Source: an uncultured Pseudomonadota bacterium (GTDB lineage: Bacteria; Pseudomonadota; Alphaproteobacteria; Rs-D84). Taken from it: a DNA stretch of 64,000 nucleotides. Positions 11,553 to 15,956 of the stretch are shown here, one piece after another; position 1 is the first letter of the stretch; the number at the start of each line of letters is the position of its first letter. The notes beneath the pieces were generated by a model, which did not search any database, was not told where the DNA came from, and worked only from the letters and a program-made list of their open reading frames with translations. A program made the position numbers and the translations under genes. Location of the stretch: the NCBI GenBank assembly GCA_900321105.1, contig OOHL01000001.1, positions 121,617 to 185,616 on the forward strand, given 5' to 3'.

Positions 11553-12500
11553 TTGTTTAAAATATTAAAGTATTTTTATTTAATTTATTTTGTATTTGTT
11601 ATCGCAAATACAGCGTATGCTGCGTCTTGCGCAACAGATTACGGTGTTGCGGTTCATCCTGTTGATCTGGATTTTAATATTAACAATCCTGAATATCCTG
11701 ATGAAATTACATTGACGGACAAAGGATTAAATACAGGTACATTTGTATTATCGGATGATGGAAATTGTTATTCGGGATATGAACCATACACGCGCGGTGG
11801 CGGTGATGTTTATCCATTAATAGAAGATTCAGATTTATGTGCGGATGGTTATTATCGTTCTGCTGGGAATTGTGTTGCGTTTACGGATGGTGGTTGTCCA
11901 ACAGGTCGTTATAATTCGGCGGTAAATATTGCGACATTTGTTGCATCAGAAGATGGTAATTGTTATTCCGGATTTGATGTTTATACGCGCAGCGGTGACG
12001 ATATATATCCATTGGTAGATTCGTCAAATTCGATATTGTGCCCGGCAGGTCAATATATGGCGAACGGAACATGTACGGCATATCCAATTGGCACATGTCC
12101 AGAAAATATGAAAAACACAACAACGAATTCTGCGACATGGTCGGCGATGACAAACGGTGTATGCCCATCTAATTATACAGAATATACAATATCAACCATT
12201 GAATACGCGTGTGACACGTATGTCAGTCACATAACATCCGAAACGCCGGCATGTTTGCTGATGTGTACAAATGGGCAAACTTTCTCGGAAGTAAATTCAT
12301 GTTCCGCGTTATGTGCCGATCATCATCAATTGATGACAGATACAGGTTTGGAATTCCCGATGTACACAACAAAACAAATCACGCCATCGTTGAATATACA
12401 GGTTGGGAATAATGTATGTTATGTGAATTTGGTCAGCGGTGCATCAGATGATGCGATAAATATAAAGTATAACAACACAACCTATCATACGGTGAAATAA
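11553..12500 (+). CDS. secreted Cys-rich protein with internal tandem repeats (TTG start)
   Basis: in-frame TTG preceded by GGGGA; signal peptide LFKILKYFYLIYFVFVIANTAYA; repeated DGNCYSGxxxYTRxGxDxYPL units; the annotated upstream extension covers the structured RNA-like region and is rejected. Confidence 0.5.
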   Translation: MFKILKYFYLIYFVFVIANTAYAASCATDYGVAVHPVDLDFNINNPEYPDEITLTDKGLNTGTFVLSDDGNCYSGYEPYTRGGGDVYPLIEDSDLCADGYYRSAGNCVAFTDGGCPTGRYNSAVNIATFVASEDGNCYSGFDVYTRSGDDIYPLVDSSNSILCPAGQYMANGTCTAYPIGTCPENMKNTTTNSATWSAMTNGVCPSNYTEYTISTIEYACDTYVSHITSETPACLLMCTNGQTFSEVNSCSALCADHHQLMTDTGLEFPMYTTKQITPSLNIQVGNNVCYVNLVSGASDDAINIKYNNTTYHTVK

Positions 12501-12557
12501 AGGATGAAAAAGGAAGAAGTAATTTTATAAAAAATTGCCCTGGTGGAAGAACCTTAT

Positions 12558-12735
12558 AAGTTCCGCCCCCGTGGGGGGGAGAATTAAAAGTTCTCCTCCT
12601 TTGGAGGAGTCCCCGCAGGGGGAGGTGGTAAGAGAGTGCAAATACTTGGAAAGACCACCCCGTCACTTCGTGCCACCCCTCCATAGAGGGGAACTAAGAA
12701 ATTCCGCCCCCGTGGGGGGGGAGAATATAAAAACT
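12558..12735. repeat. composite intergenic hairpin repeat, copy 1 (units A, B, C)
   Basis: ctcctcc-ttt-ggaggag, ccccc-gtg-ggggg and cccctc-cata-gagggg hairpins; unit C is repeated nearly verbatim at 13869..13947. Confidence 0.7.
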
Positions 12736-12742
12736 TTTATGC

Positions 12743-12783
12743 GGTGATGTTTTTTCCTCTTCCGTAAAAAAAATAACATCACC
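12743..12783 (+). terminator. long-loop hairpin (ggtgatgtt ... aacatcacc), possible terminator or processing site
   Basis: 9-bp perfect inverted repeat with a 23-nt loop. Confidence 0.35.
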
Positions 12784-12817
12784 GCGCCCGAGATAAAAAA
12801 CAAAGGAAGGAACAACA

Positions 12818-13226
12818 ATGAAACGCATAATGATATTTTTGATAATGATAATGGGAATATATTCAAACAAATACCGCGGTTGCGGTGTTAAATAAATTGG
12901 TTGGGGGCAGTGTTGATAATTCAACAACTGGACATCGATGGCAGGTTAACATGACGGATACCACCGCCGTCAAAGGCAAATCGTTATGTACAGGTATGCC
13001 TGGGGATTTTGCGGTTGTGAATACCGGTGTCGCCGATACAACCGATACCGGTTATCATTGCTATTGCAAAATGATGGCACCGGCAACATCGTATTGGGTA
13101 AATGCCAGTGGTTCATCGCCGTATGCGACTGAATCTGAATGTGAAAGCGGGTGTAACAGTGCATGTGCGAATTATATGGCAACAAATACAACATTTCGCA
13201 GCGCCGTATACGAAGCAGTGTGGTAA
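12818..13226 (+). pseudogene. frameshifted paralog of the DGR target gene
   Basis: a signal-peptide ORF MKRIMIFLIMIMG stops after 26 codons; the +1 frame (open from 12852) continues into a 113-aa ORF whose C-terminus (HCYCKMMAP..SYW...C.S.C..C.NY) parallels the active target (RYCWCKMTHP..SLW...C.S.C..C.NY). Confidence 0.5.
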
Positions 13227-13228
13227 GG

Positions 13229-13270
13229 GTTCTCCTCCTTCGGAGGAGTCCCCACAGGGTGAGAATAAAA
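13229..13270. repeat. composite hairpin repeat, short copy (unit B plus the tail of unit C)
   Basis: ctcctcc-ttc-ggaggag hairpin followed by gagaataaaa, as in the other copies. Confidence 0.6.
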
Positions 13271-13285
13271 CAAAAGGAAGAAAAA

Positions 13286-13756
13286 ATGAAAAAGATATGG
13301 ATATGTGTGTTAATGATAATGGTGTTTGTAATACCAGCGTTGGCTGTGTCGGTCTGTGCCAAAGACAGTGTTGTTACGGTTGTATTGGATCCATCAATCG
13401 GTGGTAATTCATATACATATAATAACAGCACAGGCGTGTGGAAAACGGTGTTTTCGTACGGCAATGTGTCGGGGGTCAGCACATGTTCAACCGTCGCCCC
13501 AACGGGTGGCAGGGGTTCAACCAATACCAGTGCAGGCACCCCATTGGATGCCGTTGCAGGCGATACATCGGGACGATATTGTTGGTGTAAAATGACACAC
13601 CCAATGTCTTCGCTTTGGGCGTTCCTCTACGACTACGGGTTTGCTTCGAATTGCGCTTCGAACTGTGCGACCATCTGCGGTAACTACGTCCGGAACGGCG
13701 GCGATTTGCGCGGCGGGCTGTTCGGTTCGGTCGCCGCTGCGAATGCAGCGTATTGA
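13286..13756 (+). CDS. DGR target (variable) protein: small secreted Cys-rich protein with the VR at its C-terminus
   Basis: AAGGAAG RBS; signal peptide MKKIWICVLMIMVFVIPALA; the last ~45 codons align with the TR except at TR adenines. Confidence 0.8.
   Translation: MKKIWICVLMIMVFVIPALAVSVCAKDSVVTVVLDPSIGGNSYTYNNSTGVWKTVFSYGNVSGVSTCSTVAPTGGRGSTNTSAGTPLDAVAGDTSGRYCWCKMTHPMSSLWAFLYDYGFASNCASNCATICGNYVRNGGDLRGGLFGSVAAANAAY
13605..13734 (+). repeat. DGR variable repeat (VR)
   Basis: 130 bp; 116/130 identical to the TR at 14065..14194; 13 of 14 mismatches lie at TR adenines, 1 is C to G. Confidence 0.85.
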
Positions 13757-13802
13757 TGTAACGCAAGGGCCGTGGCACGAACACGCGTGACACGATAATG
13801 CG

Positions 13803-13829
13803 CCCGACACCACGGCAAGTGGTGTCGGG
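13803..13829 (+). promoter_or_regulatory. GC-rich 10-bp stem-loop about 45 nt downstream of the VR (candidate DGR homing-enhancing hairpin or terminator)
   Basis: cccgacacca-cggcaag-tggtgtcggg perfect inverted repeat. Confidence 0.5.
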
Positions 13830-13837
13830 AATTAAAA

Positions 13838-13947
13838 TTTCTCCTCCTTTGGAGGAGTCCTTGGAAATACACCCCGTCACTTCGTGCCACCCCTTCATAG
13901 AGGGGAACTAAGAAGTTCCGCACCCGCGGGGGGGAGAACATAAAAAA
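13838..13947. repeat. composite intergenic hairpin repeat, copy 2 (units B and C)
   Basis: near-identical to 12591..12735. Confidence 0.7.
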
Positions 13948-14064
13948 CAGGAATAAAAACGAATCTTTGACAACAGGGTGTGATAAGTTGTATTGTTATG
14001 TTCAAGGGTATATCGCCGTATCGGTTGTGCGGTAGCTGATTCGTGGGGCGTGGCTGGGTTGTCG

Positions 14065-14194
14065 TGTCTTCGCTTTGGGCGTTCAACAACGACAACGGGA
14101 ATGCTTCGAATTGCGCTTCGAACTGTACGAACAACTGCGGTAACAACGTCCAGAACAACGCCGATTTGCGCGGCGGGCTGTTCGGTTCGGTCGC
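14065..14194 (+). repeat. DGR template repeat (TR), noncoding
   Basis: adenine-rich (about 28 A, many AAC/AAT triplets in the VR reading frame); matches the VR except at adenines. Confidence 0.85.
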
Positions 14195-14596
14195 TCCTTT
14201 GCAAGGTTATAACTTTGAATGCAAAGACAAAGTTTGGCTAACCTGTGGGACAAAGTGGTAAAACACTTTTCAGATGCGGATGTATCTGTTTATATATGCC
14301 TTGTCACATCAAAGGCGGGGCGGTATATCCTGTCCGAATACAAAGGACCAAACACAATACACAGGGGACATCTGGACTGGTAGGGTTTTTAACCTGAACG
14401 CCCTGGATGTCCAATACAAGTAGATTCGGGAACGAAGTGTATCGGAATCGTCACGGTATGCGCGCAGACACATAGTGTCGAGCGAATACGAGAATACATA
14501 ATTAGAAAAATCATAAAAACGGAGCTGTTTGATATGAGTTTTTATAGATTTTTATTATTGTGTATCGAGGAAAAAAATAAAACGAAGAGATAATAA

Positions 14597-14923
14597 ATGA
14601 CTTTAGATGAAATTAAAAAATTAGATGCAACATCTTGTCCAAGATTTTCGGCGTTCGCTAAAAATCAATTACCAATGCCGGGAAATAAAAAACGCCTTGA
14701 TGATATTTTAAACCGCGAAATTACTGTTATTGATTATCGAATTCGTAAATCTACGAAACGTGATGGCACCGAATGTTTACAAATGCAATTTTTACTGGGT
14801 GATGAAGTCTGTGTTGTTTTTACCGGCAGCAGCGTTTTAATCAACCAAATCAAAGAATCCAAAGATAATATTCCTTTTACTGCAACTTTGGTCAAAATGG
14901 ACAGATATTATTCTTTTTCTTGA
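14597..14923 (+). CDS. DGR accessory protein (not obviously Avd-like), 108 aa, ends 4 nt before the RT start
   Basis: position between TR and RT; beta-rich composition rather than a basic helical bundle. Confidence 0.45.
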   Translation: MTLDEIKKLDATSCPRFSAFAKNQLPMPGNKKRLDDILNREITVIDYRIRKSTKRDGTECLQMQFLLGDEVCVVFTGSSVLINQIKESKDNIPFTATLVKMDRYYSFS

Positions 14924-14927
14924 AACG

Positions 14928-15956
14928 ATGAAACGTTATAAAAATCTTTGGGATAAATTTATTTCTATGGAAAATCTGGAATTAGCAGCAAAAAAAGCAG
15001 TTAAATCCAAAAAAAATAAACCAGAAACAAAACTGTTTTTAGAACATAAAACAGAATTCTTGCTGAAATTACAACAAATGTTAATTGATGGGAATTTTAA
15101 TACATCCCAATATAAAGTTCGCAGAATTTTTGAACCAAAAGAAAGACTGATTTATATTTTACCCCTTTATCCAGATCATATTGTGCATCATGCGTTGATA
15201 AATATTCTGGGACCAATTTGGCAAAGTGGTTTTATTCGTGATTCTTATGCCTGTATCCCAGGCAGGGGATTGCATGCCGCATCAACCGCGATAATGAAAT
15301 TTATTCGTCGAAATAAATATGTTCTGCAATGCGATATTCGCAAATTTTATCCGTCCATAAATCATGATGTAATGTTTAATATAATAAAAAAGAAAATTGG
15401 CGATAAACGATTGTTGAATTTGTTACATAATATTATATGGTCATGTGGTGACGAAACAAATCTGCCAATTGGTAATTTAACATCACAATGGATGGGAAAT
15501 GTTTATATGAACGAATTGGATCATTTTGTAAAAGAACAATTACGATGCACGGACTATATTCGTTATTGTGATGATTTTTGTTTGTTCGCAAATGATAAAA
15601 AAACTTTGCATGAATATGAAAATAAATTGCATCAATTTGTGCGTGATAAATTAAAATTGGTATTTTCTAAATCTGTAATTCGAGTTGTTGCAAATGGGGT
15701 TGCGTTTATTGGTTATCGGCATTTCAAAAAATTTATATTGTTGCGAAGATATGGTGCTAAAAAAATGCGAAAACGTATTCTGCATATTGCAAAATACAGG
15801 GATAAATCTGATTTGGCAATTGGACAATTAGCGGCATATCATGGTTGGGCTAAATGGTGTTGCAGTCATAATTTTCTGACAGACGTTTGCAATCGTGCAA
15901 AAGAAATATCTGAAAAAACAGGTCAATTTATTTTTTGCAATTTGTTCAAGAATTAA
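14928..15956 (+). CDS. DGR-type reverse transcriptase
   Basis: RT motifs QCDIRKFYPSI, LPIGNLTSQ (the DGR-specific SQ motif) and YIRYCDDF (YxDD); 342 aa, typical DGR RT size. Confidence 0.85.
   Translation: MKRYKNLWDKFISMENLELAAKKAVKSKKNKPETKLFLEHKTEFLLKLQQMLIDGNFNTSQYKVRRIFEPKERLIYILPLYPDHIVHHALINILGPIWQSGFIRDSYACIPGRGLHAASTAIMKFIRRNKYVLQCDIRKFYPSINHDVMFNIIKKKIGDKRLLNLLHNIIWSCGDETNLPIGNLTSQWMGNVYMNELDHFVKEQLRCTDYIRYCDDFCLFANDKKTLHEYENKLHQFVRDKLKLVFSKSVIRVVANGVAFIGYRHFKKFILLRRYGAKKMRKRILHIAKYRDKSDLAIGQLAAYHGWAKWCCSHNFLTDVCNRAKEISEKTGQFIFCNLFKN

Follow-up and report, generated by a model that had tools for sequence, protein, structure and literature searches.

An OB-like protein as a candidate replacement for Avd in one class of diversity-generating retroelements

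The DNA considered here is a 64,000-nt stretch from an uncultured alphaproteobacterium (lineage Rs-D84; assembly GCA_900321105.1, contig OOHL01000001.1, forward-strand positions 121,617 to 185,616), which is called the window below. It contains a diversity-generating retroelement (DGR) that carries, immediately before its reverse transcriptase (RT) gene, an open reading frame (ORF) of 108 aa. This ORF is referred to as the OB gene, after the fold predicted for its product. The gene order is target gene with its variable repeat (VR), template repeat (TR), spacer, OB gene, RT, and the features are as follows.

13163-13756, + strand: DGR target gene; longest ORF 197 aa, with the VR at the C-terminus
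13605-13734, + strand: VR, 130 nt, 89% identical to the TR
13735-13750, + strand: hairpin CGCTGC-GAAT-GCAGCG, read from the sequence, directly after the VR, in the last part of the target ORF; not present after the TR
14065-14194, + strand: TR, containing 28 adenines
14229-14291, + strand: conserved non-coding block of spacer RNA (AAAGTTTGGCTAACCTGTGGGACAAAGTG...ACACTTTTC), after the TR
14597-14923, + strand: OB-fold-like DGR accessory protein, 108 aa; by prediction, short N-terminal helices that include the motif FSxFA, followed by a five-stranded barrel (residues 41-107)
14928-15956, + strand: DGR RT, 342 aa, with matches to RVT_1 and phrog_1423 and similarity to the RT of Bordetella phage BPP-1 (bRT)

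The locus is a bona fide DGR, since it joins a DGR-type RT to an adenine-biased TR/VR pair whose VR lies at the 3' end of the target gene. As a DGR it is an ordinary one. The RT matches RVT_1 of Pfam at 1.9e-13 and phrog_1423 of PHROGs at 2.7e-99, and it shares 33% identity with bRT along its full length (319 aa, E=5e-56). It has the motif YCDD and also PIGNLTSQ (PIGSLTSQ in bRT), which fits the [I/L]GxxxSQ pattern of the DGR clade. The TR and the VR differ at 14 positions, 13 of which are adenines in the TR, and each of the 28 adenines of the TR lies in the first or second codon position of the target frame. The VR stops 22 nt short of the stop codon of the target and is the only TR-like copy in the window.

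The OB gene starts with ATG and ends with TGA at 14921-14923. Its position between the TR and the RT is as given in the initial annotation of this DNA, with just 4 nt (AACG) separating its stop codon from the ATG of the RT at 14928. There is one copy in the 64-kb window. Close homologs of the protein form 71 clusters, 60-94% identical to it, nearly all of them exactly 108 aa long and derived from metagenome-assembled genomes of gut and rumen Alphaproteobacteria; comparison with eight orthologs gives a ratio of nonsynonymous to synonymous substitution (dN/dS) of 0.07-0.15. Because of these same-length homologs and this low ratio, the ORF is a real gene under purifying selection. In most relatives, the OB gene and the RT gene overlap by 4 to 41 nt. 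Together with the 4-nt gap seen here, this arrangement makes translational coupling of the two genes plausible.

The family, whose members carry no functional annotation, extends well beyond these close relatives. A family profile searched against 1.84 billion representatives recovered 737 clusters (at 50% identity) with E<=1e-3 and 272 with E<=1e-10, and most members have 95-110 aa. In IMG/VR, 270 stretches encode a relative; 80 of these loci were analysed, which with six further loci (L001-L006) makes 86. A same-strand RT homolog is present in 83 of the 86, abutting or overlapping the OB gene in 75, and full-length RTs are matched with E values from 1e-58 to 1e-141. The three loci without an RT are L005, whose 1,050-nt contig cuts the RT off, L038, and L083 (RT presumably lost at the contig end). 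A scan of one genome per species used the close-family alignment and so covers the Enterousia-type subfamily, which was found in 50 genomes, most of them from Candidatus Enterousia or from gut Alphaproteobacteria that are unclassified. In 48 of the 50, the next gene downstream is an RT homolog, and in 30 an A-biased TR/VR pair is visible within 4 kb; in most of the genomes with such a pair, the TR ends roughly 270-420 nt upstream of the OB gene. Repeats were looked for in 88 loci, the window and archaeal virus ANMV-1 among them; an A-biased pair was found in 73, and the remainder are mostly truncated contigs. Linkage of the family to DGR-type RTs is thus near-obligate in bona fide DGRs of bacteria, phages, and archaeal viruses, and the co-occurrence test proposed in the initial annotation is strongly positive.

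The OB gene keeps company with the RT in three gene orders. The order VR-TR-RT-OB, that of most viral contigs, is seen in 70 loci, where the start of the OB gene coincides with the end of the RT gene or lies slightly within it; one such locus, L013, has no room for an avd gene. The order TR-OB-RT is that of the window and of the Enterousia clade. In three loci (L064, L077, and L083) the order is VR-OB-TR-RT, and the OB gene sits in the slot that Avd usually occupies, between the target gene and the TR. Finally, the OB domain has been fused to the RT repeatedly. In the fusions P0095, P0142, and P0169, it forms the C-terminus of an RT that has RVT_1 and an IGNYxSQ motif, and a search with P0169 returned at least 13 clusters with full-length coverage, which are RT-OB fusions as well. 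One fusion, on a 5.19-Mb contig, is attributed by NCBI to Labilibaculum euxinus. All three fusion loci examined (L093, L094, and L095) have a TR/VR pair directly upstream. Two odd architectures were also seen: P0110 (233 aa) has two tandem OB domains behind an acidic N-terminal region, and P0178, which looks like the N-terminus of an RT joined directly to an OB domain, is probably the product of a deletion or an assembly artefact.

These arrangements bear on another possibility, namely that the OB gene has no part in the work of the DGR and is either a passenger, for instance a conserved phage gene placed near the RT by chance, or a spurious ORF. Most members do come from viral contigs, and a role in the DGR is proposed from context and predicted fold. 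However, the gene is also found in chromosomal, non-phage settings (in the window, between der/secreted-protein genes and porin/rpoH; in L001-L003, beside plsY, dprA, and dnaA) as well as in phages and archaeal viruses, and all three gene orders and the fusions keep it with the RT. Moreover, dN/dS is about 0.1, the window has no second copy, and the gene is absent from BPP-1 and from four other non-OB DGR loci tested. A passenger or spurious ORF is therefore very improbable.

An AlphaFold2 model of the 108-aa protein, built from a 39-sequence alignment, is confident (mean predicted local distance difference test score, pLDDT, of 85.6; predicted template modelling score, pTM, of 0.70) and is an OB-like beta barrel. 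It consists of helices 3-7, 17-24, and 34-37, strands 41-51, 59-67, and 70-76, helix 79-87, and strands 94-101 and 104-107. From residue 41 on, this is the canonical b1-b2-b3-alpha-b4-b5 order of the OB fold, including the helix between b3 and b4. The description of the protein as beta-rich in the initial annotation is thus accurate for residues 41-107, with five strands and one helix, while residues 1-37 form short helices. A second model, of the natural RT fusion P0223, has the same barrel at a pLDDT of about 93, joined through a low-confidence linker.

The closest structural neighbours of the model are SSB, PriB, and RPA. In BFVD, the top two matches are viral RT proteins (E=2.5e-6 and 5.6e-6, with TM scores on the query of 0.71 and 0.64), followed by phage proteins annotated as ssDNA-binding. 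Foldseek against the PDB gave nothing significant (best E=0.036), and its weak matches are OB domains; sequence and profile searches of the PDB returned chance-level matches only (MinE, Max, and ribosomal protein S8, with E about 0.5-1). The protein is best described as OB-like, by predicted fold and with moderate similarity scores, and not as a member of the SSB family. It has no detectable sequence homology to SSB, PriB, or the phage SSBs, no Pfam SSB match, and no acidic C-terminal tail. Unlike SSB and PriB, it carries a further helix at its N-terminus, with the conserved FSxFA motif, and is dedicated to the RT rather than to replication. A weak similarity to the OB subunits of telomerase (Tetrahymena p50, Teb1, and p75 OB1) is an analogy only, without evidence of common descent or of a role in processivity.

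The most conserved residues outside the barrel are F17 and F20 of the FSxFA motif. They belong to a helix of lower confidence in both models, which is likely to be a docking element for the RT. Within the window-type subfamily, the aromatics F65, F75, F94, Y104, and Y105 are invariant; across the wider family, only F75 and F94 among them stay near-invariant. Mapped from the secondary structure, these aromatics would lie within barrel strands or at strand ends, as they do in OB folds that bind ssDNA. A further near-invariant feature of the whole family is the motif (D/E)x(I/L)PF, found where strand b4 begins (residues 90-94; window positions about 14864-14878). In bacterial SSB, the tip DDDIPF recruits ExoI and other partners. 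The OB-protein motif resembles this tip but is internal; it is probably structural, and the likeness may be coincidence. Its interest lies only in the inhibition of the BPP-1 DGR by ExoI (see below).

A small beta barrel could also serve as a scaffold for protein-protein contacts, and the OB protein might then be an RT chaperone, a stabilizer, or a regulator of the DGR that binds no nucleic acid. The modest fold scores would be compatible with such a module, as would the isoelectric point (pI) of the family, which is variable and sometimes acidic, and the F17/F20 motif, whose lower-confidence helix is typical of a partner-binding peptide. However, nearly all structural neighbours are OB domains that bind nucleic acid, and the conserved barrel aromatics, with F75 and F94 near-invariant, appear to be placed for such binding. 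We regard a purely protein-binding role as distinctly unlikely.

The initial annotation called the ORF a different or divergent accessory factor that does not look like Avd, and the evidence favours "different" over "divergent Avd". Avd is a four-helix bundle that assembles into a pentameric barrel, whereas the model of the OB protein contains no four-helix bundle. The protein has no match in Pfam (E<=1), NCBIfam, or PADLOC, and thus none to the Avd family PF22296, which the BPP-1 Avd (bAvd), as a positive control, matches at 7.3e-36. In hhalign, a 62-member profile of the family aligns with bAvd at a probability of 0.25%. The only link in PHROGs is a weak one to phrog_19665, of unknown function, with E=0.017 for the window protein and E values down to 5e-8 for relatives.

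The idea of a highly divergent Avd nevertheless has some grounds. The two proteins are similar in size (108 versus 128 aa) and both adjoin the TR and the RT. The window protein is also basic, moderately so as the initial annotation had noted, with a pI of 8.82 and 17 K+R against 14 D+E. In addition, an ORF in the cassette of ANMV-1 has been drawn as "Avd" in a figure, although which ORF is meant is not determinable from the text, and Avd-like ORFs of nanoarchaeal DGRs have been designated by pI and mass only (Paul et al., PMC4372165). The pI of the OB family is lower and more variable than that of Avd: it is 8.3 +/- 0.8 for close relatives and 7.8 +/- 1.5 for the wider family, some members of which are acidic, compared with 9.55 for bAvd and 9.5 +/- 0.7 for the Avd class (Wu et al., PMC5758913). 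The missing PF22296 match, the hhalign result, and the beta barrel in place of the helical bundle together lead us to reject a divergent Avd, which is refuted as far as prediction allows and is the least probable of the alternatives considered here.

Avd itself is also missing from the surroundings of the OB gene: in 31 non-redundant OB loci, the ORFs lying up to 3.6 kb away (144 in total) include no bAvd-like gene (PF22296). The converse does not hold, and only some Avd-less DGRs have the OB gene, since the family hidden Markov model (HMM) finds nothing in the loci of BPP-1, two crAss-like phages, Psychrobacillus phage Perkons, and a Methanomassiliicoccales virus. Small ORFs at the end of the RT gene were considered as possible members, but neither Bbp4 of BPP-1, which overlaps the end of brt, nor the post-RT ORFs of crAss-like phage C0526BW15 and Methanomassiliicoccales virus vir215 belong to the family. 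The ORFs that overlap the RT end in Perkons and vir215 are different and unrelated, and might be additional candidates for accessory genes. A DGR-type RT is present in 108 records of the GenBank phage collection, and only two of these have the OB gene. Both are archaeal viruses, ANMV-1 and a Methanosarcinales virus, and in both the protein is annotated "hypothetical protein". The ANMV-1 member (AJP62065.1; KP703175.1, 36106-36402) is encoded directly after the RT and matches the family HMM at E=1.8e-35. In a crude neighbour-joining tree without support values, accessory-less RTs fall among the OB-linked RTs. Within the same phage collection, the nearest relatives of the RT are those of crAss-like phages, at up to 43% identity (compared loci: L089, which is crAssphage cr56_1, and L090-L092), and the crAss-like cassettes run target-TR-RT, with neither avd nor an OB gene.

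Because of the linkage to the RT, the three gene orders and the fusions, the signals of co-expression, the absence of Avd, and the OB-like fold, we infer that the OB protein is a subunit associated with the RT, that its ligand is a single-stranded nucleic acid, and that it takes the place of Avd in one class of DGRs. We give this reading a probability of about 0.6; RT binding, nucleic-acid binding, the nature of the ligand, and substitution for Avd are each suggested by genomic context and the predicted fold. The OB protein and the RT would be made together from adjacent same-strand genes, which overlap in most relatives and are fused in some, and would associate physically. The OB protein would then bind a single-stranded nucleic acid of the retrohoming cycle, which could be either of two. 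In BPP-1, bRT-Avd is recruited by the spacer RNA that follows the TR, and this RNA also supplies the priming adenosine (PMC12875486). The OB protein may likewise bind the structured spacer or TR RNA and position it for priming, as Avd does for bRT. Alternatively, it may hold and protect the nascent, adenine-mutagenized cDNA. Both roles are plausible, and they are not exclusive of each other.

A related proposal moves the protein entirely to a later step. An SSB-like factor with no part in priming or in RT function would coat the mutagenized cDNA, shield it from host ssDNA exonucleases or compete with host SSB, and deliver it to a single-stranded target. In BPP-1, cDNA integration does appear to use single-stranded target DNA, and in the reconstituted BPP-1 DGR, ExoI inhibits retrohoming non-catalytically (PMC12875486). 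The best structural neighbours of the OB protein, SSB, PriB, RPA, and the phage ssDNA-binding proteins, fit such a factor, and Avd-less DGRs that also lack the OB gene, such as those of crAss-like phages, suggest that their RTs can make cDNA without it. The neighbours and these DGRs keep a cDNA chaperone in play. However, a stoichiometric coat is not expected to be fused one-to-one to the C-terminus of the RT or to be translationally coupled to it, the OB protein lacks the sequence signature and the acidic tail of SSB, and the OB gene occupies the Avd slot in three loci. A factor acting only after synthesis is thus unlikely, if less so than the purely protein-binding module. A constitutive cofactor of the RT is favoured because of the one-to-one fusion and the Avd-like placement in some cassettes.

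The OB protein is probably a functional analogue of Avd. Both are small proteins encoded in the DGR cassette beside the TR and the RT and are co-expressed with the RT; the window protein is mildly basic. Unlike Avd, the OB gene usually lies right after the RT (before it in the window) and is sometimes fused to it. The other reported accessory classes are HRDC, MSL (MutS-like), and CH1, with the tentative PAG1-4 (PMC5758913), and together with Avd these are the only classes for which myDGR looks. Like the OB family, HRDC, MSL, CH1, and PAG1-4 are lineage-restricted genes beside DGR RTs, and CH1, again like the OB family, is found only in DGRs without avd. The OB protein has no HRDC or MutS_I match in Pfam, and CH1 (160-169 aa, acidic, pI 4.7) is set apart by description from a family of about 100 aa with a pI of about 8. 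Thus, by domain, size, or charge the OB family fits none of Avd, HRDC, MSL, and CH1, and it may coincide with one of PAG1-4. In the full-text literature searched, which did not extend to subscription-only papers, no DGR accessory of OB-fold or SSB-like type is described. The OB accessory protein appears to be a new and widespread class. That it is a fifth, previously unrecognized DGR accessory class, an OB-fold subunit that is sometimes RT-fused and replaces Avd, we hold more tentatively, at slightly less than even odds, with PAG1-4 lying outside the sequence comparison.

About a quarter of catalogued DGRs lack avd. Wu et al. placed 29% of DGRs in a class without any accessory gene and concluded that DGRs lacking avd must have a mechanism independent of Avd (PMC5758913). 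The OB partner is a concrete, testable candidate for such Avd-independent retrohoming. If the proposal is correct, a mechanistically distinct form of mutagenic retrohoming would operate without Avd in gut Alphaproteobacteria, many environmental phages, and archaeal viruses, and many DGRs catalogued as TR-RT with no accessory gene would encode an OB protein. Annotation would be corrected both for the members now labelled "hypothetical protein" and for small ORFs beside archaeal DGR RTs that have been called Avd from size and charge. Mechanistic and engineering studies, including cDNA synthesis in vitro, cryo-EM, and reconstitution in E. coli, have to our knowledge all relied on bRT and Avd. An OB partner of about 100 aa, sometimes fused to the RT, could provide a compact unit of RT and cofactor, even a single polypeptide, for targeted-mutagenesis tools.

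The spacer between the TR and the OB gene is itself conserved. In an alignment of window positions 14195-14300 with L001-L004 and L096-L143, 16 columns are invariant across 34 Enterousia-type loci, with the pattern AGTTTnGC...C.TG..GG.CAA (as RNA, AGUUUnGC...CCUG..GGACAAAG). The conserved block ends in a hairpin, CAGAT (14271-14275) with ATCTG (14284-14288), followed by TTT, which is a terminator-like match; the two inner pairs of the hairpin covary (UA:20/CG:10 and AU:10/GC:10/GU:5). A second small hairpin, AAAGTG (14252-14257) with CACTTT (14264-14269), shows apparent compensatory changes in L103 and L142. The conserved element is probably the "Sp" element of the DGR RNA or its terminator. 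An Rfam scan of 12400-15100 found no known RNA family. The spacers of viral OB-type DGRs have another common motif, GGCAAAAYACA...AGTAG. Two sigma-70-like promoter matches lie in this part of the window: TTGACA-18-TATTGT (13967-13996), some 70 nt before the TR, and TTGATA-18-TATTAT (14529-14558), some 40 nt before the OB gene; the number of such matches is not above shuffled expectation. Taken with the terminator-like hairpin at 14271-14288, they suggest that the TR-spacer RNA might be transcribed separately from the OB-RT mRNA.

The TR sits inside a 72-aa ORF (14043-14261) whose product mimics the C-terminus of the target, with Asn (AAY) codons at the variable positions. This ORF is probably not a gene but what is usually seen where a TR arose by duplication of the 3' end of a target. 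For the target gene, the true start is likely the ATG at about 13286, which gives MKKIWICVLMIMVFVIPALAVSVCA... and a signal-peptide-like N-terminus. No Pfam family was matched by the product, which appears to be a secreted protein. The hairpin at 13735-13750 is a candidate for the target-recognition stem-loop of the DGR, with a loop that differs from the canonical GRNA.

The target is the third of three consecutive plus-strand genes, which end at 12500, 13226, and 13756; the second and third, at least, encode Cys-rich proteins with similar C-termini. Just downstream of each of the three genes lies one of exactly three copies in the 64 kb of another hairpin, TTCTCCTCC-TTTG-GGAGGAGTCC (12591-12612, 13230-13251, and 13839-13860). 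Only the third gene has a VR that matches the TR, and the first two may be former or paralogous DGR targets. The target-gene region is also flanked by a GC-rich direct repeat of 65 nt, whose two copies in the window, at 12656-12720 and 13870-13934, are 94% identical.
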